Counted from the stretch's first letter, positions 1-26,719 are shown. The stretch is DNA of 26,787 nt from Methanocellales archaeon (GCA_038850285.1 JAWCMA010000001.1:163636-190422), one strand, 5' to 3'. The notes: generated by a model from the letters alone, not told the origin. Numbers and translations are program-made.

Positions 1-2103
1 GTTGCAATTGGATTAGGCGGGCCAACTCACGTGCTTAAGGAAAATTGGGAGGGCGCTGCGTTCTTGGGCTTTAATGCTGTGTTTGCTGAGTCTACTGGAT
101 ATAATGCATCTGAAAATAGATTGGAAACCCCTGCTCACGAAATAGCGCATGTATACTATATCTGCGATGAATATGACCTCTCATTTTGGGCGCATGAAGC
201 AGCAACATTAAGTATGACAGTTTTTCCAGGGTACTGTCCAAATCTATGGAATTTTGATAGCTGTCCAGTTGTAAAGGTGGATGATATAGTTTGGCCGAAT
301 TACACCTGCAATGGCATAGCTCAATGCTGCGGTCCTGCAGCATATAGAATTTATTCAGGAGCATATTCAGCTAAAAATACTATATGCACTGAGCCAGTTT
401 ATAGCGTAATGGGAAGTGGGGCTTCAAACCATCGATGCGGTTATAGTGAAAGGAGCTATAAATGGCTTGAGTATTCAGGATTGTTAAACTGCAAGCGAAA
501 AACCGAAAAACTATCAAAACCATTAACATTGGCTCCAAGCAAGATCACTAGCATAGGCTTGCAGTTTGACAAAAAAGGGGAGGAAAAAACAAGTATAAAT
601 TATATCTGGACTTACGAGGGCAGCTATAATAGACCAAGCACAACTGGTCCTTACCAACTTCAGATATTTGATGAAAATAATAACCTCGTGGATGCTATTT
701 CACTGCCAGTTTCATATCACATAATGACTGACCCACCTGAGGAAACAAATAAAACATATTTTGCAATCGAACTCGAATATAAAGATTCATGGAAGACCTT
801 AAAAGTGGTTAAGAACAACAGCACTTTACTCGAGCAAGATATAGAAGAATTGCTCTGCAATAAAAACAATGCCTGCGATGCCAAGGAAAATTATTATTCC
901 TGTCCAGCGGATTGCAAGTCAAATGCTAAGGATGGAATTTGCAATCCACAGAAAGAAGACGGCTGCGACCTCGACTGCGCTCTAGGCATAGATGATGACT
1001 GCATTGGAATGATCGCAGCGATCATATCTCCAGCTAATAACACAGTTTTCAATAAGAACACGAGAACCATTGAGCTAAAGGCACAGACAACGATACCTGG
1101 AACCTGCAAGTACTCCAATGTCTCCACTTCATATGAAAACATGACTGCTTTCGCTGACACGGGTTCAATGATTCACACCACCACGCTTGCGGTGCAAGAA
1201 GGCAAGGAATATGACTATTATGTGAGGTGCAGCGATGCAACAGGTGCCCAGAGCGAGCTGCAATATGTGCACTTCAACGTCAGTGCTAATCGAGCTCCAG
1301 TTTTGAGCTTTATTAAAGACATCACTGTTTTGGAAACTGATTTGATTGTAATCCACGCAAACGCGAGTGATCCAGATGGCGATACATTGAGCTTCAACAT
1401 CTCGGATGGTAAGTTTAAGCAGAATGACACAGGTGTGTTTAGCTGGCAGACTGATTACTACGATGCAGGTTTATATAAAGTGAATATCACGGTTACAGAT
1501 GGCAATTTAACTGACTGGCAGCTAGTGAACGTGCTGGTTAAGAATTTGAATAGAATTCCCTCACTCGAAGCAATCGAAGATATCTGGGCAAGCGAGCTAG
1601 ATAAAATCGTGATAACCCCAAATGCCACTGATCCAGATTTAGGGGAAAACCTAACATTCTACTTGGATCTCGAGAAAGTTGGCCTTGAGGGCAAAATTGA
1701 CAAATTCAATTGGATAAATAATTCCTTTGAATGGCAAACCACGCTCTACGACTCAGGTAGATATAGAGCAACTATAACAGTATCAGATGGCTATATAAAT
1801 ATCTCCTATAGCTTCAAGATCTTCATTTTGAATTTAAATGCCCCTCCCAAGCTAGAGCCAATATCAAAGCAGATATTGAGAGAGGGCGAGCCTTACTATT
1901 ATAAAGTTAATGCTAGCGATATTGACTACGATGTATTGCACTTCTCGGATAATACCACGCTCTTCGAAATCAATCCATATACAGGGGAAATCACTTTCAC
2001 ACCCGCAAGCTTGGATGTGGGCACTCACTTTGTCACGATCACTGTAACAGACGGTGCAGAATATGACTCGATAGTTGTGGAATATGAAATAAGGGGGGCT
2101 TAA
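1..2103 (+). CDS. Probably secreted zincin/metzincin-like metalloprotease with Cys-rich motif and C-terminal Ig/cadherin-like repeats; 5'-truncated by window edge
   Basis: Frame is open from base 1 ([10 protein letters not shown] precedes the GTG at 31), so the true start is probably upstream. [13 protein letters not shown] at 136..174 (HExxH...DEY zinc motif); SVMG Met-turn-like at 403..414; 8-Cys motif at 856..1002; three N-x-x-P-initiated Ig/cadherin-like domains with DPDGD/DPD/DID motifs (about 1288..2090). No C-terminal TM. Confidence 0.8.
2092..2098 (+). promoter_or_regulatory. Possible Shine-Dalgarno (AGGGGGG) for the giant ORF, inside the 3' end of the upstream CDS
   Basis: G-rich run 13 nt before ATG 2112; 8-bp intergenic gap suggests co-transcription. 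Confidence 0.35.
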
Positions 2104-2111
2104 TAGCAATT

Positions 2112-2210
2112 ATGAATAGAATATTTAGAAACAGGGAAGCAGCAGTTGGATCGTCTGCATTAGCTATTGCATTATTACTTACCATAACCTTTACACTGCC
2201 CTTTTTATCT
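2112..2210 (+). other. N-terminal signal peptide / hydrophobic segment (possible class III, prepilin-like)
   Basis: [32 protein letters not shown]: charged n-region, EA|AV, then hydrophobic stretch. Confidence 0.6.
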
Positions 2211-5200
2211 CAAATACTGCCAGATTTAGGAGTTCAAAATACTGCGCCAGAGGTAAATATCATTGCTTCAAACGCTGATCCCCCTGATTTGATTATTACA
2301 AATTTAACTTGGACGCCTGATCCGATTGGCTATGGAGACATCGTTACTCTCAATGCCACCCTGCAAAATGCTGGAGATGCAGATATAGTGGAAAAAGATG
2401 TCTGCGTGGGCTTCTTCATAGATGGTAACTACATAGGCGAGGACTGTAGAAATGTGACAATTAGCGTTAATGAAACTGCAACCTTCGAACTAGCTTGGCC
2501 TTCAACACCAGGTACTCATGAGCTAGCGGCTTGGGCTGATTACTATGATAATATCGCTGAGGATGATGAAAATAACAATAACGCAACAGCATCCTTATAT
2601 GCCCCAGGACCGGATTTAATTGTTAGCAATATAACTTGGAATCCTGAACCATTTGGCTTTGGAGATGCTGTTACTTTCAATGTCAGTGTTAAAAATGTGG
2701 GCGATGTTGATATCCTGGAGAAGGATATCTGCATGGCTATTTATATAGATGGAGCTTGGATAGGCGATTTCTGTGAGTTCGTAAATATTTCTATCGATGA
2801 AACTATTTACTTCCAAGCACCTTGGAATGCAGATATCTCTGGGAATCGCAATGTTACTGCAGTTGCTGATGCTTACAACAATGTGGATGAGCTTGATGAA
2901 GCTAATAATCAATTGTCAGTTCCAGTTTACATTACTGGGCCTGATTTAGTTGTCACAGATATAACTTGGTCTCCTGATTTTGAAACCTTTACAGTTGGAG
3001 ACTTAGTGAAGTTCAATGCAACTGTGAAGAATATTGGGGAGAGAGATATTTCAACACCAACTCAGATTCGCGTTCAATTTTGGGTCGATGGAAATCCTAT
3101 TGGCAGTAATTATAATAATACAAAGCTGCTGGTAGATGAAACCACAGTGGTGAGCATTTCTTGGAGCATAACCCTTGGGAACAAAACCAATGTCAGCGTG
3201 ATGGTTGATCCATGGAATTCTATCTCTGAAATAGATGAAACTAACAATACACTTACAAAAGCCTTCCAAGTTAAAGTTCTCGCTCCCGATTTAATCGTTA
3301 GCAATATAACTTGGAGTCCAGAAACAATTGATTTTGAAAACAATGTTTATTTCAATTTCTCAGTAACGAATATCGGAGATGCAAATGTAACCAATAAAGG
3401 TATTTATGTTTATTATTATTTTGACCGCGACTTTTCCTATAATGGCTATGATGGCTATATTTATAGATATGGTAATATTTCAGCCAATGAGACTGTTTAT
3501 TTCAATACAAGTTGGTGGGGGCCTTGGCAAGCGAGGGGAGGGTATCATAATATCACTGCTAGAGTAGGTCCTTATTCTTGGGAATCAAATCAAACGAATA
3601 ACAGGCGAGTTGCTGACTTGCCCTATATACCTGGGCCAGATTTAATTGTTACAAACATAACTTGGACTCCAGATGCAACAGCGGTAACAGCCAGGGACAG
3701 CGTGACCTTCAACGCCACGATAATGAATATTGGCGAGAGAAATATATCGACAAGGTATATCTATGCGAGATTTTGGGTAGATGGAATTGATATAGGAACT
3801 GGTAGCAAATCCACGAGCTTGCCTATCAATGGTTCCATGTGGATAACACGTTCTTGGTCAATACCAGTTGGGAATAAAAATAATGTTACAGTAATGGTCG
3901 ACTATGGGAATAATATTGGCGAGATAAATGAAACTAATAATACACTTACAAAAGCCTTCCCAATGCAAGTTCTAGCTCCAGATCTAGTTATCAGCAATAT
4001 AACCACAATTCCCTATCCACCTCGCGAGGGTGAAAATGCTACAATCAATGTCACCATAAGCAACTTAGGAGACGGCAATTACTGGGGAGCCTTTACCTCG
4101 AGAATTCTCGTGGATGGTACTGAAGTTGCAAGGCCATATCTGCAGAGTATTAACGAGAGCAGATTTGACTACGCTACTCAGTATGTCTCACAGAGAGATT
4201 ACATCACCATGACAGCACCTTCATCGTGGGGATATAGCTACTTATTCGCAAAGGAAGCATTCGCTAGAGAGAAAAACCTCACATTCCAACTTCGGATTAA
4301 ACCTGCAGCGGGCAGTCATACAATGATTGGCTGGAAGGATAATACCTCGGGATATAGCTATACCGATATGCCTCACGCTATTTACTTCGCCGATGGCAAC
4401 ATATATGTTTATGAGGATGGCAACAACAGAGGAGATACTGGCTATGATTATATTCCCGATACTTGGTATGATGTAAAGGTGGTTTTGAAAGCAACAGGCG
4501 CAGAATACTACTACAAGCAAGTGGATAGCGATATCTGGACCAGCCTGTACTTCAGCACATATTCAAGCGAGAGCAATCTTAGACCAGGTATTGCTGCATA
4601 TGGATCAACGCGCTACACTGATGACTGGATAGTTAAAAACGACAGCGGCACGCTATTCTCAGAGGACTTCAGCGGGAAGACGATCGAAGCAGGTGGAACA
4701 AGAAATGTCTATGCAAACTGGATAGCAACAAGGGGCGATCACACTATAATGGCGATAGCTGATTTGAATAATGATGTCTGGGAATCAAATGAAAACAATA
4801 ATCAGCTAACAGTGAACATAACTCCACTTCAAGGCCCAACTTTTAACTGGATTAATACTTCTCCTGAGTATCCAAATGTTAATCAAAGTATTACGGTGCT
4901 GGCGAATATAACTGATGATATAGCAATAACAAATGCAATTTTATATTATTCATCTCAAGTGTACAATGCTCACGATGATTTTAATTCGACCCAGGGCTAT
5001 AGGAACTGGTGGTATCAAGAATGGACAGGCTCAACATATCAAGATATGAACTGGGATTCCACAAACAGTAGATGGAAAGGAAGCTACAATTATAATTTGT
5101 TATGGAGCGATGGAGGGCATCCTGAAACTTATGAAGCCGCTCGAAAGTGGTCAGCTCCTAATAATGGGACTATAAGAATAACTGGAAATGCACATAAGGC

Positions 5201-8200
5201 AGATACAGGGGGAGGAGATGGGGTTATAGTGAGAATATTCAAAAACTCTGAATTGCTATGGGAAAAAACGATAGCCTACTATGATAATATTGGATACGAC
5301 TTTGATTTGATAACTTCTGTACAATCAGGAGATGCAATTTATTTCAGGATTCACCAGAATGGGAATATCAACTATGATTCTACTTATTTTAATCCAACTA
5401 TAGCATTCCTAGCAAACTTGAGCATGAGTAATATAGGAGATATCTATTCTGCAACCATACCTGGCTATTCAAATACAACAAAAGTCTACTACTACGTTTC
5501 AGCAACGGATTCGGATAATATTACGCTAAGTAGCTCAATAAAATCTTTTATTGCTGATGAAGAGCCGCCGAGATTTGTTTCAATTGATACTCTCCCAAGA
5601 TATCCCAATGCAACCGCTGAGGTATACATCATTCCAAATATTCAAGACAATGTTGGCATAGCCAATGGAACTCTCAACTATAGCTATGACAATGTAATCT
5701 GGAATTCTACTGTGATGAATCTCACAATTATCCCCGCGGTTGAAACTCCTTCGAGCACGGGTTCCACAACCTTAAGTGCTAATTATCTCCAGTGGGATAC
5801 TAATGATGGAGGGTATATAAGCGATGGAGGCTCTGACGCCTATGATGGCATGTATCACTTGAGCTACGCTGGAACTGATTATTCAAGCGCTGCATATCTC
5901 TGGGAAGCAAATGGCAGGGAAATAATATTTGCCAAGGAGACAATTGATGGTTTGGAGTTCTCAAGAAAATTCTATGCACCCAACTCGGGTTACTGGGGAA
6001 GATATATAGATACAATTCATAATCCAACGAGTAGTGATATTTCAATTTCTCTCCAAGTATATGGAAATCTCGGCTCCGATGGCTCCACCTATACCTGGGC
6101 AAACGAGAGTTACTGGCTGGGAACAGATGACTATGACGCTGGTGGAGATCCCTCTCTTGCACACGTTTATGGAAAATATGGGGCAAGTGTTTCAAGAAGT
6201 GGCGATAATGTCTATATTACCTATTCTTTAACTATACCAGCTGGTAAATCCAAGTCTCTCGCGACTTTTGCTATTAAAACACCAAATCAAACCTTTGCTA
6301 GAGAAATTGCAACTGAAATTATTGAGAAATTTGAGAACGAGAATTGCGAGTATAATGCCTATCTAAGTTTCGAGGAATTGGATCAAATATCCAACTGGAA
6401 GATTTCAACTCTAGCTGCTACAATTCCACCTCCTAATTATACAACTAGAGTTTATTATTATTTACACGCTTTTGATTTAAGCGGCAATTCAGCAACCTCA
6501 GAAACACTAAGCTACATTGCAGATGGCAATTATCCCGCAATAAACTGGGTTACAAATGTCACTGGAATCCATAGCTACAAACTCTCGATGCCAATTTTTG
6601 CTAATGTATCAGATAACCAGGGCTTCAATTCAGTAAAAATCTGGTATTCATTTGACAGCACTACGTGGAACGAGAGTTCCATGAAACCTATTATCAACTT
6701 AATTAACTGGGGATATAGAAAACCTGTTTACATTAACAACTCGGCTAATCCACAGAATTTGATTGACTATCAAGTGAAAGTCAATGTGAGTTACGAAAGT
6801 GAAATGCAGCCTGATTTTGATGATTTGAGATTTACCTATCATAACTTAACCTCTGGATTAGAGGAAGAGATTCCTTATTATATTGAGAGCTATATAGCAG
6901 GAGTTAATGCCACTGTTTGGGTTAAAGTTCCTCTCATTAAAGGCGAATCTCTAGAAACAATCTACGTGTACTATGGAAATCCCGATGTAGAGAGCAAGAG
7001 CAATCTCAGCTCAGTTTTCATACTCTGGGATGATTTCCTAGGAAATACATTAAACCCAAGATGGACATCAAGTAGGGCTTCTATAACTGATGGCTGGGTA
7101 ACCTTAGATAGAAGTGGTGGTGACGCATATCTATATACAACTTGGAATAGTGTAGCTACCAGTTTTACCATAGAAACAAAGATCACCATTTTGAATCCAA
7201 ATGCCTATAGAACAAGATATTATGCTTCAACTTCCGCTGGAGGGGGGAGTCCAACTGGCTTTGATTATGGTCTATTCCGCATTGGGACTAATGATTTAAG
7301 AGTATACTGGAATGGTTGGACTAATGTAAGGATTTATCCATATATACCGTATACACTAAAATGGATATTAACCCCGCCAAATAGCTATGTCTGGCAAGTC
7401 TGGAATGAGACCACTAAGCTGTTCGAGGGAAGCGCTTCTATAGCAACTTCAAATGTCATAGGAATCACATTCTCGGGAACAGAAGATGATACATCTGACT
7501 TCAAAATTGACTACATATTAGTAGACTACAGCATTCCCCAGCCTTCAATTAAGCCAAATGTAAGCATAGGAGATGAAGAAGCCATTTCAATAGATTCAGC
7601 GCTATATAAGGGCTTCATACCTCCAACCAACGCCACAACTCATGTTTATTACTATGTTGAAGTCAAAGACCTAGCTTTAAACACTGTTTATTCTGATATA
7701 TTTTCCTATATCACTTCATTACCACCAGCAATAGCCAATATTACAATAAGTCCAGCATATCCAAACGGTTTTGACAGCGTCACTGTTTCAGCGAATATAA
7801 CTGACGATGGCTACGTTGCCAATGCTTATACCTATTATGGTATCGCTAATTATACAAATGCCCTGCAGTTTGATGGCGTGGATGACTATGTTAAGATCTA
7901 TGATAGTCCTAGTTTGAGCATCATAGGAACAGGATTAACACTTGAGGCATGGATAAAGCCGAATTCAGGAGCGGTCGAGGGTGACATAATCCATAAAGAT
8001 TATCAATACTCCATATTCTGGCGCTCAAATGGTGCAATTACCTATGCAGATAGTATTACATGGTCTTACGCAGATATTGGCAACTATGGAAACGCACCTG
8101 CAGACCAATGGAGCCACGTTGCCGTTACCTTTAATGGAACGCATATAATGTTCTACATTAATGGAGCTCTAGTTGGCCTCAAGCCAAGAACCGGTAGCCT

Positions 8201-11200
8201 TACTGATAATAACAACCCAGTGTTAATTGGATGCTACGGCGGGACAACTTGTAGTAGCAACGTATTCAATGGAATCATAGATGAAGCAAGAATATACAAT
8301 CGAAGCTTAACAGCTGAGGAAATAAGAGGAAGATACCAAAATAATACAGATATAAGAGATGGCTTAGTTGCAGAATATAAATTCAATGAGGGTCTTGGAA
8401 ATAGAGCAAATGATTCCTCCGGCAATAGTAACAATGGAACAATTTATGGTGCAACTTGGACTACCAGAGAAATGCCAGTAACAACGTGGAACAGCTTGGT
8501 AATGTCAAATACAACCGGCATTTACTCTGCAGTTATACCAGCAACTGGCTATAATGCAAAAGTTTATTATTACCTAACCGCTACGGATGACCTAGGCTAT
8601 ACATCTATATCGCCCACTTATAGTTATATCTCAGATCTAGAACCGCCTCAATTCATCGGCGTTTCAATATATCCACAATATCCCAACGCAACGACAAATG
8701 TAACAGTAAGCGTTGATATAAAAGATAATGTTGGCGTGGCCAATGCAACTCTCTACTATAGCTATGATAGTATAACTTGGAATTCTTCTATCGTAAATGT
8801 CACTGGTTTGCTGCAGAATTATTCGGTAAATGAAATTTCACATCCCTTTGAAAGCGCCAGTGAAACAATAATAGCTTCTGGAGACGATACATATGGAACC
8901 TATGTTTTGCCATTTTCATTCCCATTTTACAATTCAACTTATAATATAATTTACGTTGGCACAAATGGCTTCATCTCATTTGATTCTGGCAATACGTGGT
9001 ACTATAGTAATTTGCCTAGCTACGAGCAAATAGCAGTTGATGTTCGAGACTTGGTTACAACAGTATATGCAGCTAATCACGGTGATTATGTAACAATAAG
9101 ATGGTATGGCAGGCTTTATGGAGGCTCTGGGGATCGAAACTTAGCAACTGCAGAGCTTTATAGCAATGGAAAAATCATTCTCACCTATAGCGATTATCTC
9201 GGGGGTTATGCTGGAGTAAGTAGTGGAGATAATAAGCACTATACACAAATTTATCCTGCAACTGGACGCGCCTATGAATTTCTTAGACCAAACGCTGGAG
9301 TAATACCGCCCCCATACATCTCCACAAATGTTTATTATTACTTTGAAGCTTGGGATGTCTCAAGAAACGTGAATTACAGCCGCATTTATACCTATTACAC
9401 TGGGGAAGTCGATTTAATAGCCGAGAACATAACCATAACCGGAGCACTTGCAGCAGGCAATGAGGTTGAGATTAGCGCTTGGGTGAAAAACCTAGGTCCA
9501 GGGGATATACTCGCGAATACCTCAGTTGGCTTCCTCGTGGATAACAGCTTTATTGGTAAAACGAGAATAGGCAAACTAAATGCAAGTGAATCTACGATAG
9601 CAAAACTCAACTGGACAGCCACTGGCGGGAAGCACAATATCTCAGCAAAAGCAGATTATGACGATGAATTCTCCGAAACCAGTGAGACAAACAATGAAGT
9701 AACAATAGCTATTGAGATATCTCCAGATGCAATACCGCCAGTGTTTAGCGACCTCACTCAGGTGCCAGTGAATATAACCAGGGCAACAATAGGCAAAGTA
9801 GATATCACAGTTAACATAACAGATGTAGGAATGGGGGTAAATCCCGCATCGGTTGTTTTACATTACAATCTAACTGGGGATATAGATAAGAGTACATCAA
9901 TGAACTTCGTTGGTGGATTATATAAAGCAAGTATCACTGAGAACTGGTATGCTTCAAGCGGTAAAAATCTAACCTATTATATCTCAGCATCAGACCTAGC
10001 TGGCAATTCAAATGTTTCCCAAATAGTAATTGATTATATAGACCCCATTAATACCATACCCCAAGTTTACATTATCACTCCAAATGCCACCACTGCATAT
10101 AAGGATGAAGGAATAATTATCTGGAGAATAGTTGATGACGATAGCAGTTTATTCAACTCCACTCTTTATTCTCGCAAACAGGGAGAAAACTGGACGTATT
10201 TAGCAGAAGTAAATACAAGCTTATTCATTGGCAGCAACACATATCAATCTCAATATACCTGGAATACCTCTCTACTCGAGGAAAGCAATTATCAGCTATT
10301 GATAAATGTAAGCGATGGCATTGATTTTGCGAGCAGTGTTTCCGAAACATTTGCCATAGATAGATCAAAGCCATATTCAATAACACTAACAAGTCCAGTT
10401 GAGGCATATGTAGGAGGAGAGCCAATCTCTTTTAAGTTCATTGCCAGAGACAATCTAGATAGCATTTTAACCTGCAACTTAACGGTCGATGGAATTAGCA
10501 AAACCACTGTTCAAGGAACCACTTTCCCAGCAAATAATAACTCCCTTACAACTGTAAGTGCCTATGGAATAGCAGAGGGCAATCACACATGGAGTATAAC
10601 CTGCTGGGACAATGCACTTAACGTGAATACAAGTGAAACTAAGTCATTTGGAATAGACCGAGCTCCTCCCGCGATTACAATATATGCGCCAGCTGATAAT
10701 ATTACTATTGACATCGATACCCTAGAATTCAACTTCACAGCAAGCGATACCCTGAGCACAAACTTAAGTTGCAGTATTATTTTAAATGAACAAAACCAAG
10801 CAACTCTTTATGTTGAGAGAGGCACTTACGCTTTGAAGAGTATATCTCAACTCTCAAGCAGCACATATAATTGGTATATAAGCTGCAAAGATGAAGCTGG
10901 AAATACTGGAAATAGTGCAACTAGAAGATTTAATGTAACAACCGACCTTGGCTTAGCAAGCGAGGACATAGAATTTTCAGATCCCACACCCCTAGAGGGA
11001 ACTTCAATAACAATGAATATTACAATATATAACTTTGGCAAGGTAAATGCGACAAATGTACTCATAAGAGCTTATGGCGAGTCCGAATTAATCGGAGAAA
11101 GAACCACCTCGGTACTAGCACATAGTCAAGTGAAGTTTTCCATGCCTTGGAATCTAGCAGGCTTACCTGCTGGCATGCGAAATGCAACAGTAATAATATC

Positions 11201-14200
11201 TGAAAATCCACTTGTTGATTCCAATCCAGCGAATAATACCGCGAAGAATAGCATAATAATCAACTTAGATAGCATTCCACCAGTAATCTCGAGAGTTATA
11301 GTACCAGATATCAATGAAAACTCCCAAAATGTAACTATCGAGGCAGAGGTAACAGACGCTGGCGTGGGCGTTAATACCGTTATTCTATTCTACAAGATTG
11401 AAACCTGGCCAAGTTGGCAGAATAAATCCATGGTAAAAGTAGCAAGTGATAAATATAGAGCGATTTTAAGCAAGCAAGAAATTGACTGGGACTTATATCA
11501 AGGCCAGAACTTCACTTATTATGTGAATGCCTCGGATAAGAATAATAACTATAATCAAACCTCGATAGCAATAGAATATATAGATATAATAAATGACGTG
11601 CCTAAACTCGCTATCTATACGCCTAATAAGGATAGAATTTGGTTTGGAATTATAACTATAAACTTCACCTGCGACAATGATAATGAAGGGCCTTGTGCTT
11701 CAACAGTGTACTACTGGCAGCCACACCCATGGGCACCCACTTATGAGGAAAACCCAGTGGAATACTTCAAGCAAGGCAAATGGATAAAAATTGTAGACCT
11801 CGTAAATGAGGGCATTACAACTTATGACTGGGATACAACTAGCTTTAATGGTTGGAATAGATTAAACATAACCGCGAGCGATGGCATATATATAGTTAGC
11901 AATCTCTCGGATATCTTCATCATCGACAACTTCAATATCTCAATCACCATAGACAACTACTACGATAGCGATGCAAAAGCATATGTCATCGCAGCAACAC
12001 CAGTGATCTATGGCAAGGTAAATGCCATTTATAGTAACATCACCTCGCTAGAGATAAACAACACTAGCTATACCTTAACAATAAGTCCAATTGGAAAGAA
12101 ATTTGGTAACTACACCTTCGAGTCAAGCACTATTTTCACCACCCCCTTCAGCGTGAAGATAAACGCGAGTGATGAAGCAAATAGCTATGATGAAATAACT
12201 GGATACTTCATAATAGATAGCCTATTGCCAGTGATCGATAGCGTGGAATTCCAGAACTCCTACACTAACGACCTAGTTAAGATAGTAGTTAACGCGAGCG
12301 ATAACTATCTCATTGATTCAGTTACTGCAACTATTCCAACGAATATTGGCATGCAAAATATCACTTTAAATAAAATCAATGAAACCATTTATGAAGCTGA
12401 ATTCAGAGGCCCATTGACACCTGGAACTTATACTGCAAATATTACAGCTAGAGATATAGCTGGGAATATTGCAAAGGTAACCACAGCATTTGACATTACC
12501 CCTGGAATCGAGCTAGAGGTTAGCGATATAACATTCGAGCCAGGCATAGTTGCAACAGGTGAAATGGTAAATATCACTGCTTTGGTCAAGAACACAGGGG
12601 GCAAAGACGCCTTTAATATTAATATTTCCATTCTCGTTAATAGCAAGCATATTGCAACGTTATTCGCAAATGTTTCGCAGAATTCAAGTGCAGCAATTCC
12701 CTTCAACTGGGATACCACTGGCTTCGCAGGCAATGTAAATGTAACGGTTAAAATTGAAAATGCCACTGGAATCTATGAAGTTAATTATACCAATAATATC
12801 TTATCTAAGTCATATTACATCAAAGCCTCAGATTTAATAGTCACTAGCATTTCCTTCAACCCACCCCCGCCAACTTACTCTGGATTGAGGGTGGCAATAT
12901 ATGCTGATATAGCAAATATAGAAGAGATAAATGCCACTTGGGTGAGAATCAATTTCTATAGAAATAATACCACTGAGGATAATTTAATTGGCTATACATA
13001 TATCGATGTCAACGCGAATTCAACCACTAGGGCACAAGTGGAGTGGAGAACCTCTGGACTGGAGGGCAATCAGACCATAATTATCTGGATAAATCCATAT
13101 AACCTGCCAGCAGAGCTTAACACCAGTAATAATTTAGCAAGTGCAATCTATCAAATAGAAGAATATATCACTGAAAAGATACCTGCAACCCTGACCTTCC
13201 AGAAGCATTTGGTAGCACAGCTAGCTGGAGAGAAAATCAGAGGACTTGCCTCAGGTAACTTCGATAGCGATACCAAGATGGACTTTGCAATTGGCACAGA
13301 TAAAGGCAATGTAATTCTCTTCAAGAACCTCGAGACCATTATTGAAAATAGAACCAAGTATATCAACTTCACCTCTGTAGCTATAGATAATCTTGGGGAG
13401 AAAGCTTATGGCATGACCTCAGGCGATTACTATAACGATGGCTATCAAGATCTCGTGGTTGGCACAGAATCTGGAAAGGTAATCCTCTACAATAATACCC
13501 TGGGTATATTTACTAAGAGAGAGTTATTTGACGTTGGGGACTATGCCTATGGCTTAACAACTGCTGACTACGATGGCGATGGCGATTTAGATCTCGTGGT
13601 CGGCGATAAGCTGGGACACGTTTCTCTATATCTCAATGATAACATGACTTTTACTTTCTCTAGAATTTTGACCACGAGAGAAGAACCATTTGGATTAACC
13701 TCAGGCGACTACAATCTCGATGGCAGCATAGACTTAATAGCTGGCGATAGACTAGGGCAGTTAACAAGAGTAACTAAGGAAGCTGGAGTTTATAATAGCT
13801 TTATCTTCGCAGATATAGGTGCATTTGCCCATGCATTAACGACCGCGGATATTGACTTCAATGGCAGACTAGATTTAATTGCAATTGGCTTCGCGGGCGA
13901 GATAAATCTCTTCTACAGCCGAGAAGGCGGCTTGGTGATGGATCCATTGATAATTGGGAAGACTAATAATACCTATGGCATAACCTCCGCAGACTACGAT
14001 GGCGATAATGATATCGACCTTATAATTGGCACTGACGAGGGCGAGGTCTATCTCCTCTTAAACAGCCTCTCGATAATTAAGAGCTCATCCAGAGACCCAG
14101 CGCCCACCTCGCGCCCATTTGAGATAGCAACTTATATAGAAAATCCATGGGCAAGGAAGATGGAGAGCGTAAATTTAACTGAAAGCTGGGGAGAAGAACA

Positions 14201-17200
14201 GAGACTAATTGAGGATAGCTATTCCTACACCGCTTGCTGTGGATGGTGGTGCATGAACTATCACGAAACTCGCTCTGGAGACCTGCTAATATTTGATCCC
14301 CAGGGGAGAATGTATCTCTTCCAATTCCCCAATACCATTAATTATGACCCTGAATTTAGATACTCAGGCTGCTTCTACTGGTCTTCTTATACCTACAATG
14401 GTAATGCCAATCTCAGCAATACCTCTTTCAGTATACCAAATTTCCTTGATGTGGTGAAGTATGATACCTTGAAGCAGAGAGAGAAAATAATCTACAAATA
14501 CCAACTCTCTCCGCAAGAAGAGGAAAATGTAACAGCAATAACAGATGTTAACTATCTCATTAAAGGCCTTTTCAAAACAGCACCAACTGATTACTTGCTA
14601 TCAGATGATGTTTCTAATGTTAATAATCAAGCTGCAAATGTCAAGAACCTCAATCCCAGCGAGTATAAGACAGATCGCGATTATCTAGATGTGGAGATAA
14701 GAGCTCCAGAATTCGTGGCAGAGGACATACAATTCTCTTACAAAGGCATAGCAATACCATATAAGCCCATCACCATAACTGCCACTGTAAACAACACTAG
14801 AGATATATCCATAGATAACGTGGAGATTCAATTCTTAGTGGATAATCAAACTATATCTCAAAGCTGCACTTACGATCCCTTTGGCTACATCATTGAATGC
14901 AGAGATGTGACCTTCAACATAGGCGCACTCTCAAAAGCAAAGATCTCCTATATTTGGACGCCGACAACTGGTGGAACCCATGATATAGCCATTGCGGTCA
15001 ACCCCGCGAAGAAGATAGTGGAAAGAGATTATGGGAATAACAACTTGACAAAGAAATTTAGTTTAGAGCCACAAGCGGACTTAGCTCCAATAGCAATATG
15101 GTTCAACAAGAGTGAATACATAGAGGGAGAGCGCGTTACAGTATATGCCACGATAGAAAATGTGGGGAAGAACAAGAGCTACTGGGGCTACGCGGTATTC
15201 TGCGATAGACAGAGGATTAACTGTACGCCAGCGAGTCCATATTACGATGCGGATAAATGCGATGGAATAGTTAGCTATCCATGCGGCACGGGTGCCACTT
15301 GCTGGGTCTGCGAGCCAGTGGGCTTTGGCAATCTAGAGGCTGGGGAAAATGTTACAATTAATTACACATTTACCCTAGCAGATGGATACTCCTCATCACA
15401 GGGAACCCATTACTTCAGCGTGGTAACTGGAGATGTTGGCTCTGGCGATGATGATAACTCGAATAACGCAATTTATACAACTTATACCGTAAAGCCCTCG
15501 CAAGTTAACTTGAGATATGATGATTGCAATGGTTGGTGCGACCCATTCTACTTCACTAATCCAGAGGATGAAATACTTAGGTTATATTTAAGAGAAGGGA
15601 ATGCAGGGGGAGAGGATGCAAAGAATTACTCAATAAGAATTTATTATGACAACAACCCTGCTAATCTCCTTAATCAAACTAATAATCTCACTCTAAATAA
15701 CCACACGCTTATCACTAGAACATTTGATGTGAACTGGAGTGCTGTGCCAAATGGAGACCGCGAGATATATGCTTACATTGACTATAATAATGAGGTTAAT
15801 GAATCTAATGAAGGCGACAATATAGTAACCACTCCCTTCAAATGGATCGACTTAGTTGCAAGTAGTATTTCCTTCTCAATCGAGCATCCACGTGCAGGGG
15901 ACTTAATATCTATCAGCGCTACTATTCGCAATGAGGGGGATATTAGAACCAAGGAATTCTCAGTAGACCTATATATAGATGGTCAATTCGTGGAGAGAAA
16001 GAATACCTCTATACCAGCGCATTCCCAGAGCAATGTGATATACAACTGGACGGTTCCCAAATCCCAGATGGTGAACCACGATGTAATGATAAAGGTAGAC
16101 CCAGAGGATGTGATAAAGCTTGAGAGTGAGGCTAACAATGTGCTTAAGAAGCAGCTCTCAACAATTGGCTGGGAAATGCATTTGCTTGCGAAGGGATTCA
16201 AGCACCATAACCTAACTTCCTATGAAAATAGCGGTGGAGCATTTACTGAGAAGGACTATAACTTGAAAGACTTGTTCATGGAATTCCACTCTGCTCCAGC
16301 TTTTGCAGATTTAGATGGCGATGGAGATTTAGATTTAATGGTTGGCGATATCACTGGCAAGCTGAGGACCTATAAGAATACTGGCAGTGCTTTGAATGCA
16401 ACTTGGGTGGAATCTTACTGGGCTTATGGAATAGATGCTGGTTCATATTCAACTCCAGCATTTGCTGATCTTGATAACGATAGCGATTTGGACTTGGTAG
16501 TTGGCAATAACTTCGGATCTTTAAGTGTATATGAAAACACAGGTAATGCAACTAATCCTGCTTGGAGCAAAGTGGATAAGTGGAATATAACGAAGATAAG
16601 CGTTTCATCTTATGCAGCTCCAGCATTCGCTGATCTAGATGGCGATGGCGATTTAGATTTGATAATAGGAAGCGGCGATGGCAAGCTATACTCCTATGAG
16701 AACACTGGGAATTACACTTGGCAGGAAATTGACTGGACAGCAGATATAGATGCAGAGCAAAATGCAGCTCCAGCATTCGCTGATCTAGATGGCGATGACG
16801 ATTTAGATTTAATTGTCGGCCTCAAGAATGGAACAATTTATAGCTATGAAAACATTGGCAGCGCTTCAAGCCCAATTTGGCAAATGGCAACTTGGACATC
16901 TTCAATAAAAACTGGCTCCCACGCCAAGCCTGCACTCGCCGATCTCGATGGCGATGGGGATAAAGATCTTGTTATTGGCAGCAACAACGATGGCTTCATA
17001 CCGCTAAGAGCAGGATATACAGAGCCCATTTATCTAGAGGTGGTCAATTATGGTAACTTCACCATGACGGTAGAGAGGGTTAGCTTTGAATTGCTGAATA
17101 AGAGTTCCGGGAATAAGATTACCGACCTATTTGTTGCTCCACCAATAATAATCCCTGCCCTAGCCGCAATAGAGCGAGAATTCATAATCACTCCGCCGGT

Positions 17201-20200
17201 TGATATACCTGAGAATACCACGCTTGCGATTGTCACTGAAAATGTATTCCCAATGAGCCCCGCGTGGATTAACAATCCCGAGCTGGGAGGCTATACGACA
17301 GACGTGCTCGTGGATGCCATCACAACCCTTGAGATCAGCGGTTCCTACAGAGTACTATACAATGATACAATGTCACCGAAGTTTGTCTGCAGCAACTGGT
17401 GCCCGATTTATAACCTAACGCCTTATAAGATGGCCACGATAATCGCAGACTCCCCAGCTGGAATTAATGTCTATGAAAAGGAGAGAAGGACTAACTTTGA
17501 AATCATAAGACCAGATAGAGCGCCTGTTACGATTTACATCGAGCGATTAGGCGAGTCATTTAGCTTAAGACCAGGCTATATAGAGGACATAGAGTTTACT
17601 ATTCAAAATAACAATAAGAAGGAATACAAAGTTGATCGCTTGACATTCGAGCTATATAAAGATGGCAAGATCTATGATTTATATACCGATACCAATGGCT
17701 TCACCTTGCCAAGGGAAGAGTCGATTAGAAAGAGTTATAAGTTTTATGTGCCAGAAGGAGTGCCGCTTAATGCCACCTTCATATTGAAAGTGGGCACGAA
17801 ATATGGCTTCCCCGATGGCTCTTGGCATAGGAATAATATAAACATCTATCCTAATGTCGCTGGCATAGGTGGCCTTGGATGCGCATTTGCTTCAGAAGAT
17901 ATACCATTAAAAGGTAGATATGATGTAAATAACCTCACGCTCTTTACAAATGAAAGCAGCTGGGGTGCGCAGTACTTCAGCAGCGGGGATATATTCAGCT
18001 TGATGGATATCCTGGCGAAGTTCAACTATATTATTGATCCAACTCGGGTGGAGGAAGAATTCAATCGCGTGCTATCATCGCCAATAGTGGGTGAGTATCT
18101 CTCCTACTTCGGTGTCACCCCTGATATAGTCAATATTGAGGATGTCAGAAACATCTGGAATCAGAAGATCCATCGCTATCATAGCGAGATCGATGATGCC
18201 TCCTATTTAAGGAAACACATCTGGATTCCCTCGACATTGCAAAAAGCAGAGCTATATCAAAAAGTCACTTGCGCTTGTCCAATGGGGGTTCCAAATCCAC
18301 CTTCAGGCATAATCACTTGGGTAAATGAGAAGAATAAATATAGTTTATGCGCTGATTTATGTAACTTTGAGCAAAAGGGCTGGACTTCCCTCTACTACGA
18401 TTTAAAGAAAGGCGAGGATAACTATATAACTCTATATTCCTATGGCCCAAGTCGGGAATTTGAGGTTAACTTCTATGATTTAATAGCTCTAGATTACGTG
18501 CATGCGGCAACTGATAGGGCACTAGAGCCAGCCTTCGACATAAATGTATCTTCAATTGGCTATAAAGGGCTATTGAGAAGGGGATATGAAGAACCAGTTA
18601 ACATTACCATTATCAATAACGACGACGATCCCTTCATAGTTAGAGTTGTGGAATTCGATTTAATCTCAGATAATAGAAAGATCCACCTTTTAACTGATTT
18701 AACTCCTAAGGTATTTGAAGCTAAACAAAAGCAAACTCATAGCTATTATGTACCAATTCCAGATGATGTACCGCTTGATGCAAAGCTTAGAATTAGAGTG
18801 GAGAGAATAGTTGAGCTGCTGGATAAGCTCTGGCTAAGAGACTCTGAGCTAACCATGGAGCAATTGCTCTCCAAGGAAACTCTTGACTATGGATTTGGCG
18901 ATACACTTCCAACTTCTCAAGCGAGCAACTATAGAAAGCATGTATTCATGCCCCTAAATATCACTCGAATGGAAATGATCCTAGGCGCTGGCTTGGATAC
19001 AAAGGTTTACTTAAATGGTGAATATCAAGGCTCAGCTTACTCTGGCTGGTCACCTATAGCCACGCAAGCTGGATTGAGGGAGGGTGAGGACAACTTAATC
19101 TCAGTTAAAGGAAGCATTCCTAAGACTGATGCGCAGATCTACGTGGGCAGGGCATTTGAAGGTGGAAGTATAGTTGAGCCAGAGCAAGATATATTCTACA
19201 TGGTATTTGGAATGCACGAGCACATTTATATCCCAGGTAGGGAGAAGTTCTATGTATATCCCAATGAAACTGTTACCGCGAGGATAAAGATTGATAATTA
19301 CTATCGAAATGCGAGAACATTTGATCTAACATTATATGTAACGGACTTTTCAACTAGAAGTGAAACTATTTTGAAATCAATGACTATAAAGGTTGAGCCT
19401 CAAACCTCGAAATATCTCGAGGTTGATCTAACAATTCCAAGCTATGTGAGCAATGAAACTAAGCTCCAGCTATCAAGTAAATGGCATGAGATAGTCCAAG
19501 ATAAAGCTTGGCTTAGAGCCTCGAATGTAGATGATACAAGTGCTAAGAATCAATTCATGGATGACTCCAGCTGGGGAGTGGTGAATCTCTCAATTGCAAA
19601 GGAAGAAGCACTCTATTTCCGCAAGCACCTCTGGATAGATTCCTCAACCGAGGATGTGCAATTTAAACTCAAAGGTGTGGAGAAGCTCTGGGTCAATGGC
19701 TTAGAGGTGGATATGAGTAAGTGGAAAGCCAATGAGTTTAACTCGCTAACTGGAAATGAAGCCACTAAATCCCAAGATAATGTCATAGTGCTAAAGGCAA
19801 AGAGCTATGATGAAGATGTTGACGCTGAGATCAAGTTAATCCACTTCGTGCCAGTGAAATCCACAGATCTAGATTTATTCAACGTTAGCTACTCGCCTAT
19901 GGCAGTGCTAATGCAAGGCAATACAACTTGCTACTTCAATCAATCCCTCTGCAACTGCAGCGAAGTAGCCAAGGGCGAATGCATCTACACAGTTAATCAA
20001 GGAGATAAAGTAGCAATTAACTTCACAATTAGAAATAGTGGCGAGCTCTTCTCCAAGAACTTCACATTGCTAGCTCAAGCTAGCGGTAGAAATATTGCTC
20101 TAGAGAGAATAAATATGCATCCCTATTCAAGAGATACTTGGCAGATTACCTGGGATACCTCGGAGTTCGCGGGCTTATATGAATTGAATGTAAACCTCGA

Positions 20201-23200
20201 CCAACCTGAGGATATAATTATAGAATCATCTGAATTGAATAACCAAATAGCGAGGAAGATCTATGTCAACGCTCCGCCTAGGATTGAGTATTTAGATGTA
20301 AGAGAACTCTATGGTTTGAATGAAAATATTGCGATAAAAGCGCTAGTTACAGATGCGGATTCCAATTTAGAAAGTGTTAAATTCGAAATCTCCCTACCCA
20401 ATGGCACAGCGCTAATAATTGAGCCATTGAGGATAAATAATAACAGCATTTACACCTATACCTATAAGTCCTCGGATAAAGGTAGATATACTATAAGAGC
20501 ACTTGCGAGGGATTCCCTGGGATTAAATGCTTCAATGAGCAAGTGCTTCGATATTTATAACTCGCTTTTTGTGAATGTTAAAACTGAGAATGATACCTAT
20601 TACTATGGAGAAACAATTAGGCCTACATATGCAGAGTACTCAAATCGAACCAGAGAAATCAATAACACCCCTCCACTATTCCTAGGTGCCTATGACGATC
20701 TTCTCGAGAATATCATTAAGGGCGGGAGTAAAGTTACCATTAGAACAATTGCAGTGGATAGTGATAATGAAGCTATAACCCTATATGTCTGCAAGGATGA
20801 TAGAGTCTCCCGAGAGGGATGCTTGCTTGAAAGCTATTGCAATGCCACCTCGCTGGTGAATCCAAGCTGCTCATTCTACGCAGAAGCTAGTGAGGGCAAT
20901 TACACTTGGCATGCCTTCATATTCGATGGAAGAGGTGAGAGAGCTCGCGCTAGTTATCAAGGCAATTATACCATTGATACCAAGCCACCAGTGATAGAGC
21001 TACTCTCAATTGCCTCAGCCAAAACCAAGGTAGAAGGCCTCTGGGGAGCCACTCCATATCTCGATGATCAAGCGGATAATAAAACATTGATCACAATTAA
21101 AGGCGAAGAGGGAATGAAATGCAGAATAGGCGTTGACGAGGACTACATGCTGCATAGAGATAGAAGTTACTACAACCTCGAACCTAGAGAGGAATGCTAC
21201 GTCTCAGGGGAATATGCCAATTGCCTCGCACCATTGAAGCGTGTTAATCTCACAATGGCTCACATAAGCTGCATTGATAGATATGGCAATGAGCAAAGCA
21301 GCACTGAAAACCTAGATGTAGAAATAGAAGTTAGCCCAGCTGATGATATATATGATAGCTACAATGGCTCAATATTGCAAAAGGGCTCATATGTTACTAT
21401 AAATGGCTACACTAGATATTGCTTGGATCAAGGGAGTAGCTGCACACCAAATATTCCAATTGAAAATGATAATGTGCAATTCAATGAAGAAGGAATCTGG
21501 CACCTCAGATACTATGACTCCGCGGAGAAGATAAGAGATACAGCAATCTTTGTGAATACAAAACCAAGCCTCAGCGAGCAATTCCTAGAATTCATAGATT
21601 ACTTAGGCCACGAATTCGAGGTAATAGCTAGGATAAGTGATCCTGAGAATCAAAAACACCAATGCAATATCACCTACAATAACTCAACCATTGAGATGAA
21701 GCTTGAGGATGGAAGAGCGAGAGCAATATTGAAGTCAAATTCATCAGAAATAGCTGAGCTCGCGATTGCGTGCAGCGATGGATTCGAAGTGGAAAGCTTA
21801 ACCACTTGGCACAGCTTCCCTAACCATGCTCCAGTAATCCGCGGAGTGCCTGATATTAGCTTGAAGCCAAGCGAGGGCAAAATCCTGAATCTAAGTGAGT
21901 TCTCAAGAGATATAGATGGAGATAGCCTTGCATACTTCATAGCAAGCGGCGCTGAAGGTGCGACTGCTAATGCATCCATCGAGGCAAATCTACTCATAGT
22001 CAATGCCTCAAGCACGGTGGGAATATCAACTCTGTGTTTAGTGGCAAATGACTCCCATGAGAATAGTAGCGAGGAATGTATAAACATCTACGTCGAAGAC
22101 CTAAGTGAGTCTATGGTTAAGAATAACGAAGTTACTGAGATGCTTCTCAAGGTATTAATAAAAGTTCAATATTACACCAATCCCCATTGGGTCGACGTTG
22201 AAACAGGCTACTACGAGGTAAAAGTAGACCCCGGGAAGTTTAATCAAATCGATTTAAAGGATATATATAATTGGGATAGCTATAATTCACCATATAAAGC
22301 CGGGCTATTCCGGATCTATGCTGCAGTAATAGATGAAAATAATACTGTGCTTGAAAATAGAGATGGCAGCTTAGCAAGCTCTTCCTATAACTTCAGCTTG
22401 ATGTATTACGAACCCGCTCCCTCTCCTCCATCAAGCATTACCAACTTAACCAATGTAAGCTATGCTGATACATATATCAACTGGACTTGGGATAATCCAG
22501 CAGACCTAGACTTCTGGTATGTAATGGTCTACATAAATGGCGAGTTTAAGCAAAATGTAACTGCTAATTACTATCTCGCAACTAGCTTAGCACCTAATAC
22601 CACATATACAATTTCCACTCGAACTGCAGATTACGCTCATAATATCAATACCACTTGGGTAAATCACACTGCCACCACAGCACCAATGCCACCTATGGTA
22701 AACTACACCATCACTGGCTATGTCTTCGATACCCTCGATGCAGCACTAAGCGCTGTTAATGTAAGCGATAATCAATCCAGAAGCTTTGCTTCTTCCCTTT
22801 CAACTGGCTACTATGATCTAGGCAAGCTATATCCAAATGGCACTTATCTCCTGACCTTCAACAAAACTGGATTTGAAGATGGCACTCTTGAAGTTATTAT
22901 ATCAGGTGGTGATAATCTAACCGCAAACATTACCCTCCGCGACATAACTCCTCCAACCCCTGTTATAGCAGTAGCAACTGATACTCCCACGCAAACCACT
23001 GTAAATATTACTTGGAGCGCTGCCTCTGATGCAAACCTCTGGGGCTATGAAATACTCTTAAATGGCATGCTCTATGCTCATACCCAGAATACCTACTTCA
23101 ATGTCACTGGACTCAGCCCAGGTACTACTTATGAATTTAGAATTAGAGCAGTTGATAAATACAATAACACTGGAGAGAGCTCAGCTCCAATAATAATCAC

Positions 23201-26033: not shown

Positions 26034-26057
26034 AGTATAACTTTAAGTAATACTTAT
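26031..26057. promoter_or_regulatory. 27-bp palindromic operator (putative AbrB/VapB autoregulation site)
   Basis: ATAAGTAT-A-ACTT-T-AAGT-A-ATACTTAT: 12 of 13 positions pair; overlaps the TATA 3' end and the start codon. Confidence 0.7.
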
Positions 26058-26301
26058 GAAATTGAAGGTAAAAGTAGGGCCGAAGGGACAGATAGTGATC
26101 CCAAAGGCAATTAGGGAGAAAATGGGAATAAATCCCGGTGACCTCGTTCTTCTAGATATAGAAGGCGAAAGAGCAATAGTGGAAGCAACTCATTATAACC
26201 CACTTGAAAAGCTTTCAGAGATCTCCCGAAAGGCAGGTGCAAAATCTAGCGAGCTAGTCTGGGGAGATAAACTTTACCAGGAATTACTGAGGGGGGTTTA
26301 A
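26056..26301 (+). CDS. vapB: AbrB/MazE/SpoVT-family antitoxin
   Basis: KVKVGPKGQIVIPKAIREKMGINPGDLV is the AbrB-type swapped-hairpin motif; lies 7 bp upstream of a PIN gene. Confidence 0.9.
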   Translation: MKLKVKVGPKGQIVIPKAIREKMGINPGDLVLLDIEGERAIVEATHYNPLEKLSEISRKAGAKSSELVWGDKLYQELLRGV

Positions 26302-26308
26302 GTGGTTT

Positions 26309-26719
26309 ATGGTTTACCTCGATGCCAATGTCTTCGTTTTTGCAGCCTTGGCTACGGACGAACTTGGAGATGCATCGCGCTATATACTTGCAAATTTGAG
26401 AAAAATAGAAGCTAAAACAAGCTGCCTCACATTAGATGAACTTGCTTGGGCTGTTTTAAGAAGAGTAGATATTTCCACAGCGGCTGAGGCTTGTAGAGCA
26501 GTGCTCATGTTAAAAGACCTAAATATAGCCTCAGTTGAATATGGCGATACCTGGGAAATGACTAAAGCAATGGAAACTTGGAAGTTAAAACCTAGAGATG
26601 GACTGCATCTCGCGATCATGAAGCGGCTGGGAGAAAAAACGATTGTCAGCGAGGATGAGCACTTCGATAAAACTAATGTTAAGAGGATCTCGATCGCTAC
26701 TTTCACGAGGTCGATTTGA
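26309..26719 (+). CDS. vapC: PIN-domain ribonuclease toxin
   Basis: VYLDANVF...TLDEL...LKPRDGLHLA...IVSEDEHFD conserved acidic PIN residues. Confidence 0.92.
   Translation: MVYLDANVFVFAALATDELGDASRYILANLRKIEAKTSCLTLDELAWAVLRRVDISTAAEACRAVLMLKDLNIASVEYGDTWEMTKAMETWKLKPRDGLHLAIMKRLGEKTIVSEDEHFDKTNVKRISIATFTRSI

Follow-up and report, generated by a model that had tools for sequence, protein, structure and literature searches.

The founding paper on split domains is reportedly that of Graham et al. 2024 (Proteins 92:933). In the RTX adhesins AhLap, FrhA, and MpIBP, immunoglobulin-like (Ig-like) split domains, several per protein, project ligand-binding domains off the fibre axis (PMC12077191, PMC10865825), and such a domain is a practical flag for recognising ligand-binding heads in megadalton proteins (PMC12077191, bioRxiv 10.1101/2025.09.30.679566). 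The latter source also reports six carbohydrate-binding modules in one adhesin, and describes split extender domains whose opening follows the first strand or precedes the last two (bioRxiv 10.1101/2025.09.30.679566). Here we describe a split-domain region in a stretch of 26,787 nucleotides (nt) from a Methanocellales archaeon (GCA_038850285.1, JAWCMA010000001.1:163636-190422), the whole of which is called the window. The window contains a giant open reading frame (ORF) of 7,509 amino acids (aa), and we confirmed that aa 622-2433 of its product are six consecutive β-sandwich domains, each with a foreign domain inserted. A previous reading of the DNA (the sequence-only reading) had proposed that the domains are nested rather than arranged as beads on a string, and had known of no described system of this kind. 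The nesting is borne out by complementary profile coordinates for all 12 halves; the second claim is not, as the literature on RTX adhesins already contains split domains that project ligand-binding domains.

In RTX adhesins, the projected domains bind ligands such as glycans, peptides, or ice. As there, an entire globular domain, its two termini side by side, breaks up an Ig-like rod domain. The protein also has several split units, with heads of carbohydrate-binding type, and the units appear to stand far from the anchor in a giant surface fibre. At a surface loop of each sandwich the chain departs, forms a complete foreign globular domain of 150-300 aa, and then comes back to finish the sandwich. 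The features are given below with aa numbers of the giant ORF, calculated as (nt-2112)/3+1; "hmm" denotes positions in the scaffold profile hidden Markov model (HMM) described thereafter.

2112..24641, + strand: giant ORF, 7,509 aa, frame open over 22.5 kb
3975..4133, + strand: CARDB-6 N-half, aa 622-674; CARDB profile 3-58 of 116, E 4.7e-15
4134..4646, + strand: CARDB-6 insert, aa 675-845 (171 residues); probably LamG/ConA-like
4647..4820, + strand: CARDB-6 C-half, aa 846-903; CARDB profile 53-111 of 116, E 6.3e-14
4830..4958, + strand: Ig-1 N-half, aa 907-949, cut at site 1; aa 909-949 match hmm 4-44, E 5e-11
4959..5408, + strand: Ig-1 insert, aa 950-1099 (150 aa)
5409..5561, + strand: Ig-1 C-half, aa 1100-1150, from the alignment to intact copies and the HMM match (aa 1077-1152 to hmm 25-101)
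5562..5726, + strand: Ig-2 N-half, aa 1151-1205, cut at site 2; aa 1151-1205 match hmm 2-56, E 9e-14
5727..6398, + strand: Ig-2 insert, aa 1206-1429; modelled as a galactose-mutarotase-like β-supersandwich with two C-terminal helices
6399..6530, + strand: Ig-2 C-half, aa 1430-1473, from the alignment to intact copies and the HMM match (aa 1389-1473 to hmm 14-100)
6531..6698, + strand: Ig-3 N-half, aa 1474-1529, cut at site 2; aa 1473-1536 match hmm 2-62, E 3e-12
6699..7595, + strand: Ig-3 insert, aa 1530-1828; DUF2341 (aa 1568-1652) and a tail of ~175 aa, possibly LamG-like
7596..7721, + strand: Ig-3 C-half, aa 1829-1870; aa 1828-1872 match hmm 57-101, E 3e-11
7722..7844, + strand: Ig-4 N-half, aa 1871-1911, cut at site 1; aa 1870-1912 match hmm 2-44, E 5e-10
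7845..8480, + strand: Ig-4 insert, aa 1912-2123; Laminin_G_3 (PF13385)
8481..8639, + strand: Ig-4 C-half, aa 2124-2176; aa 2124-2178 match hmm 46-101, E 7.5e-13
8640..8807, + strand: Ig-5 N-half, aa 2177-2232, cut at site 2; strands A, B, C, and C'; aa 2177-2232 match hmm 2-57, E 7e-15
8808..9293, + strand: Ig-5 insert, aa 2233-2394; NIDO-like as a lead only
9294..9410, + strand: Ig-5 C-half, aa 2395-2433; strands F and G; aa 2395-2431 match hmm 62-98, E 1e-9
9732..10049, + strand: intact scaffold copy A (internal control), aa 2541-2646; hmm 2-98, E 8.5e-15
11274..11591, + strand: intact scaffold copy B (internal control), aa 3055-3160; hmm 3-98, E 6.5e-13

The halves of Ig-1 to Ig-5, when rejoined, are collinear over ~100 columns with the two intact copies of the same protein (aa 2541-2646 and 3055-3160), and the C-half motif VYYY is found at aa 1125, 1447, 1845, 2151, and 2407. 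Each half alone is matched weakly to the intact copies by pairwise BLAST (E 0.01-0.5). The scaffold HMM, which has 101 positions and derives from 29 intact copies in five other proteins, none of them from the window protein, matches 10/10 halves in order and with complementary coordinates (domain E 7e-15 to 1e-9). The boundaries of the Ig-1 and Ig-2 C-halves are fuzzy by some residues because the HMM alignments over-extend into the insert. CARDB-6 is split alike, its halves matching positions 3-58 and 53-111 of 116 and standing 171 residues apart, as judged by a profile that was iterated on the CARDB copies of the giant protein itself and that the CARDB-6 halves may have entered. The five homologous Ig-like scaffolds and the split CARDB domain of the sequence-only reading were thus recovered by the two profiles, and its insert coordinates agree with ours within ~10 residues. 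According to the HMM coordinates, neighbouring scaffolds adjoin directly, without linkers. At E<=0.1, three Pfam families only are found in aa 500-2600, namely CARDB (PF07705, with matches in the split-domain region), Laminin_G_3, and DUF2341, and the matches of the latter two fall wholly between scaffold halves. A search of the whole genome with a second profile (A1) gave two full and nine half matches, all within the giant ORF, so that the scaffold in this genome is confined to the giant gene.

A later CARDB copy (aa 4323-4470, window ~15078-15500) fits the profile only up to position 58, after which a Cys-rich stretch of ~40 aa (8 Cys) and then CARDB-like sequence again follow. Position 58 is a break point common to this copy and the split CARDB-6.

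The positions of the cuts in the Ig-like scaffolds should be noted. As proposed earlier, they fall at two sites. Site 1, used in Ig-1 and Ig-4, is at profile position 44/45 in the loop after strand C, and site 2, used in Ig-2, Ig-3, and Ig-5, is at 56-62 in the loop after strand C'. FN3/Ig sandwiches have an up-down topology in which the C-terminal pole holds the loop after C and the N-terminal pole the loop after C'. The two sites are neighbours in the sequence and, by the FN3 topology, should sit at opposite poles of the sandwich.

Unit 5 was modelled with AlphaFold2 (AF2) from an alignment containing 13 other split units and 16 N-half rows. The halves have predicted local distance difference test (pLDDT) values of 86-95 (residues 1-55) and 73-97 (residues 222-257). 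The strands of the N-half are at residues 4-11, 22-28, 33-41, and 48-51 (A, B, C, and C'), and strands F and G come after the insert; 6/7 canonical sandwich strands are thereby assigned. After the low-confidence insert had been trimmed, the model (range 1..257) was compared with 48,161 solved chains. The two halves jointly superpose on single FN3/Ig-like domains, 37 of the chains scoring Z>=8, and the best 40 matches have Z 8.0-9.9 and root-mean-square deviations (rmsd) of 2.1-3.0 over 79-99 aligned residues. Matches include 2c4x (Z 9.9, rmsd 2.2 Å, 87 aligned), the NCAM2 FN3 domain (Z 9.3), irisin 4lsd (Z 8.7, 91/98 residues), the Ig-like domain of Porphyromonas gingivalis peptidylarginine deiminase (PPAD), 5ak7 360-465 (Z 8.6, 91 aligned), and SiiE BIg 2yn3 (Z 8.5). 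As modelled, the scaffold has the FN3/Ig-like β-sandwich fold. None of 7/7 intact scaffold copies is matched by Pfam fn3 or another family above threshold, with weak stray matches only, which places the scaffold in the FN3/Ig-like fold but in no named family. The superposition of unit 5, the profiles, and a weak pass in two-chain modelling all speak for the two halves being one Ig domain.

These observations bear on the reading in which the halves are independent short modules or linkers beside ordinary domains, that is, beads on a string. The weak BLAST matches of the halves would suit such an arrangement, as would an AF2 model of unit 2 in which the halves failed to fold. However, 12/12 halves have ordered complementary profile coordinates, uninterrupted copies of the ~100-aa scaffold exist in the window protein and 10 other proteins, and the confident halves of unit 5 superpose jointly on single FN3/Ig domains. 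Moreover, we know of no independent fold for a half-sandwich of 40-55 aa. We regard this arrangement as very improbable.

A chimeric contig or a decayed gene could also join unrelated pieces, making the nesting an artefact of assembly or annotation. The assembly is of the metagenome type with 39 contigs, and one contig of run X1 continues unlike the window at 5042. Against this, the reading frame is open for 22.5 kb, and 12/12 half/insert junctions are bridged, each by at least one separately assembled contig, with 0 differences and no joints. The bridging Logan contigs match the stretch at >=99% identity without joints or indels; they come from four runs of a single study with the label hot springs metagenome, and these runs may be the source samples, in which case they are not independent. 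No RNA run was listed among those containing the stretch, a result that bears neither way on expression. In addition, the complete Ig-2 unit recurs in three other proteins (P0002, P0065, and P0101) and the NIDO-like split unit in one (L070). We regard an artefact as extremely improbable.

The same scaffold was found in homologues with other inserts or none. The 73 proteins or ORFs with scaffold matches contain 170 intact copies and 26 split ones, of which 5 lie in the window protein and 21 elsewhere; the L020 ORF was dropped from this count as identical to P0066, and unpaired partial matches were counted as neither. The family occupies 57 loci in species-representative genomes, with archaeal and bacterial titles, and the three loci with split scaffolds all have archaeal titles. 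A metagenome scan gave only four loci. Archaeal giant proteins with the same scaffold arrays are P0066/L020 and P0067 (Thermoplasmata), L021, P0069, and P0002, and arrays are also found in P0065, P0101, and L077. Domain orders are as follows, where S is a split and I an intact scaffold.

Window protein: SSSSSII
P0066 (Thermoplasmata): SIISIISIIS
L021 (Methanobacteriota): ISIISIISII
P0069 (Hodarchaeales): IIISIIII.SIISIIS
P0101: IIISI
P0002 (Aenigmarchaeota): ISII

The arrays of the relatives consist mostly of intact copies, with roughly every third copy split, and all the splits outside the window protein (21/21) are at site 2. Site 1 and the unbroken run of five splits are, in this sample, found in the window protein only. 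The 23 inserts extracted form 12 blastp clusters, and at least 12 unrelated kinds of insert are thus represented. In one of these clusters, several inserts of split units in L020, L021, and L077 (e.g. L020:6011-6856) close with G-W-Y-I-D-D/N-V/I before the scaffold resumes.

The complete Ig-2 unit, its supersandwich included, is shared with P0002, P0065, and P0101. Identities over its full length are 42-50%, and in these relatives it is flanked by intact scaffold copies. P0002 has 49% identity to the window protein over aa 1098-1527. The ends of this alignment are the insertion points of Ig-1 and Ig-3, and both of these copies are uninterrupted in P0002. The C' loops of the scaffold family accommodate insertions, and since relatives carry other or no inserts at the same loop, heads appear to have been gained, lost, or exchanged in evolution. 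Within the giant gene, an 88-nt stretch of the Ig-2 N-half (window 5638-5725) recurs at 80% identity in the Ig-5 N-half (window 8716-8803). The shared stretch stops 2-5 nt before the insertion points, with unrelated DNA beyond, which fits duplication or recombination within scaffolds carrying different inserts. Direct repeats flanking the inserts were not found for any of them.

The inserted domains are mutually different, as claimed earlier. In hhalign comparisons of the seven insert pieces, 18/21 pairs have a probability of <=1.4%, and the three exceptions connect the CARDB-6 insert, the LamG insert, and the Ig-3 insert tail. The LamG label proposed for the Ig-4 insert and the DUF2341 label for the Ig-3 insert were confirmed by Pfam. 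Laminin_G_3 (PF13385) covers aa 1921-2071 and scores 95.9 bits where the curated cut-off is 27.6 (E 3.4e-27, profile 1-150 of 151), and DUF2341 (PF10102) scores 59.7 bits against 23.4 (E 3.9e-16, profile 1-82 of 84). Pfam at E<=10 gave no match for four of the five family-less pieces, and the fifth has a chance-level match only. A PDB sequence search with the Ig-1 insert, the CARDB-6 insert, and the Ig-3 tail likewise gave nothing (best E 0.2-0.9).

The two ConA-like labels of the sequence-only reading fared unequally. The CARDB-6 insert, for which no Pfam match was found at E<=10, aligns with the LamG profile over 112 columns (hhalign 69.6%, E 4.2e-5), giving moderate support to a LamG/ConA-like assignment; pieces homologous to it are held by P0076 and P0082. 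The match of the Ig-3 tail to LamG is weak (3%, E 0.015), and its match to the CARDB-6 insert is at 15% (E 0.0017). The pair of DUF2341 and tail recurs in P0076 and P0082 at 38% identity. The jelly-roll label given to the Ig-1 insert was unsupported by Pfam, the PDB, or any named ESM-Atlas cluster; the nearest Atlas clusters are all unnamed (0.96), and no homologue was found among 244 proteins compared.

The Ig-2 insert, left unnamed in the sequence-only reading, is the best identified by structure. In the AF2 model of unit 2, its pLDDT is 84-98 over unit residues 70-285. A Foldseek search with it gave 75 matches at E<=0.001 (best E 2.6e-6). The closest superposition is with 9ju0 (VIA; Z 16.5, rmsd 2.7, 199 aligned), followed by the N-domains of glycoside hydrolase (GH) families GH65, GH15, and GH94 and YidC P1 (Z 13-15); the best 50 matches listed have Z 12.8-16.5 with 176-206 residues aligned. 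The modelled insert is thus a galactose-mutarotase-like β-supersandwich. Counted at E<=1e-3, its family, which is without a Pfam model, has 1,196 proteins; at E<=1e-10 the count is 568. Members of the supersandwich family (P0100-P0244) often have several stretches per giant protein, mostly outside split scaffolds.

The Ig-5 insert had been labelled nidogen-like. In the ESM-Atlas, NIDO is annotated on 12-14% of the members of its three nearest clusters (0.97-0.96), but neither NIDO (PF06119) nor another Pfam family matches the insert at E<=10. A 72-aa part of it is 28% identical to the insert that a split scaffold in L070 carries. NIDO-like is therefore kept as a lead only.

The rest of the giant protein gives the region its setting. 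By eye, the N-terminus has a signal-like segment (aa 1-34), and the C-terminal end consists of a Pro/Thr-rich stalk, a hydrophobic helix, and KRKK. A Pfam scan gave, in order from the N-terminus, five CARDB domains, the split-domain region, the two intact scaffolds, and then CARDB, Big_13, FG-GAP, fn3, and CarboxypepD_reg domains. The signal-like N-terminus, the stalk, and the C-terminal transmembrane (TM) helix with KRKK would place the split-domain region in the membrane-distal third. At aa ~5150-5950 (window ~17500-19900) there is a module that occurs three times, is a few hundred residues long, and by eye has a conserved Y/F-R-K-H-hydrophobic-W/F motif; no Pfam family covers these repeats.

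Taken together, the best overall explanation, and in our judgement a probable one, is a nested split-domain chain on a cell-surface rod that holds out different binding heads. The protein would be a C-terminally anchored surface fibre whose distal third is a rod of split domains, presenting a panel of mostly carbohydrate-binding-type heads (LamG-type, supersandwich, DUF2341, and NIDO-like) and playing the role that split domains have for ligand-binding domains in bacterial RTX adhesins. Sideways display of the inserts is plausible from the topology. Both loops lie next to the edge strand C', so the heads would be expected to emerge from the rod close to the domain junctions and on one side, and the heads of Ig-1 and Ig-2 and those of Ig-4 and Ig-5 are predicted to be neighbours.

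Several points weigh against this explanation. Adhesion as a function is something that we infer throughout, reasonably in our view, and the signal and the anchor were assigned by eye only. The supersandwich is familiar mainly from glycoside hydrolases and phosphorylases, where it is a non-catalytic domain, rather than from adhesin heads. The giant gene was not found in 60/60 relatives searched, three of them of the same family. Regarding the models, both halves of unit 2 were left below 50 pLDDT, a single homologue row covering them. In unit 5, the insert is below 50 pLDDT, the predicted TM-score (pTM) is 0.47, and strand E is unassigned. Z values of 8-10 count as middling, though nearly all the confident residues are covered. 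The Ig-4 halves modelled as two chains gave a weak pass (interface score ipSAE 0.49 vs 0.02 for the best of three controls). In these runs, contacts agree at >=96% and the partner pLDDT is at least 75. The mark applied is reached by 58/80 solved complexes and 2/110 mismatches; at ipSAE 0.60 or under it is reached by only 7/80 complexes and by both passing mismatches. As Ig/FN3 folds are abundantly solved, this pass, obtained with alignments of our own making, may reflect the predictor's knowledge of solved structures. Finally, the flanks of the P0002 alignment are similar only at the family level, so that gain here and loss in P0002 look alike.

Some of these points suit another reading, which accepts the nesting but gives the protein a role other than adhesion. 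It might belong to the envelope as a structural or protective component, or be a scaffold that captures or processes glycans, its inserted carbohydrate-type domains binding the cell's own glycans or polymeric nutrients. The best-identified head shares its fold with non-catalytic N-domains of GH15, GH65, and GH94, the C-terminal part weakly matches the S-layer glycoprotein model NF052345 (E 2.6e-11, far below the cut-off), and the protein has 255 N-x-S/T sequons. However, Pfam finds no catalytic domain anywhere in the protein, an S-layer protein would be expected in relatives, yet the gene was not found in any of the 60 searched, and varied heads on a rod are a documented adhesin design. We consider a non-adhesive role unlikely, though deserving of attention.

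The split-domain chain holding out binding heads may also be part of something broader. The scaffold could be an archaeal display platform whose C'-flanking loops are docking sites, with whole binding domains swapped by recombination between near-identical scaffold DNA. Lineages would then retarget the adhesin cassette by cassette, the window protein being the fully loaded extreme, and the heads of Ig-1/Ig-2 and Ig-4/Ig-5, meeting pairwise at the junctions, could form composite binding sites. We offer this joint proposal tentatively, as a possibility that is more doubtful than not.

The genome is 1.28 Mb at 93% completeness, and the giant gene makes up 1.76% of it. Ribosomal protein S24e was found in the genome by a search that matches only the 4 archaeal ones among 14 controls, whereas the assembly contains no SSU rRNA. 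In the 60 relatives, LamG and DUF2341 matches only were obtained. As the giant gene was not found in these relatives, it is not a conserved trait of the lineage, and this result, together with the share of the genome that the gene takes, suggests a strain-specific interaction trait.

The neighbouring genes are as follows.

1-2103, + strand: upstream ORF, open at the window start, with Big_9, cadherin-like, and He_PIG domains
26056-26301: downstream AbrB-family gene (TIGR01439, E 7.7e-14)
26309-26719: gene for a 136-aa protein, partner of the AbrB-family gene; no match in an NCBIfam search

By its domains, the upstream ORF encodes another large surface protein, immediately ahead of the giant gene and in the same orientation. 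The layout of the two downstream genes resembles a toxin-antitoxin pair, which is putative.

The window defines an unnamed but widespread scaffold family and a large unnamed supersandwich family. The split-domain rule can also serve for giant surface proteins of archaea, the heads of which otherwise escape domain databases, and the six separately expressible units could be used for binding tests. Loops of this kind are also natural guides for protein engineering.

The closest solved sequence relative of the scaffold is the Ig-like C-terminal domain of PPAD from P. gingivalis (4yt9, 5ak7), which is the best sequence match of the scaffold profile (E 8.3e-7) and has the pattern Y-Y...M...Y...V-YYI-A-D-G in common with it. 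Unlike the scaffold units here, the PPAD domain is single and uninterrupted, carries no insert, and is attached to an enzyme. In pilus adhesins of Gram-positive bacteria such as RrgA, an Ig-like domain likewise has another domain lodged in one of its loops. The nesting in RrgA is of the Russian-doll type in one small protein, in contrast to the serial panel on a rod in the window protein.

The differences from the RTX adhesins are clear in both the host and the construction. The host is an archaeon, and Pfam finds no RTX/HemolysinCabind family, type I secretion system (T1SS) signal, or retention module over all 7,509 aa; judged by its domain content, the window protein is not an RTX adhesin. 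Its scaffold is a different, unnamed family, to which CARDB is added, its insertions come after strands C or C', and it has five or six split domains in a row with no intact spacer. Since the anchor would be a C-terminal TM helix, the polarity is reversed relative to the RTX adhesins. A literature search for an archaeal split-domain adhesin gave no relevant case, supplementary catalogues of RTX split domains lying outside its scope. New here are thus the archaeal host, the unnamed scaffold family, CARDB as a split domain, the other insertion loops, and the five splits in a row. Display by loop insertion would be a general solution for multi-headed fibres, since unrelated scaffolds in two domains of life have come to the same design. 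We rate the region as an archaeal split-domain display region that evolved independently of its bacterial counterparts, with an unusually dense run of six loaded domains.

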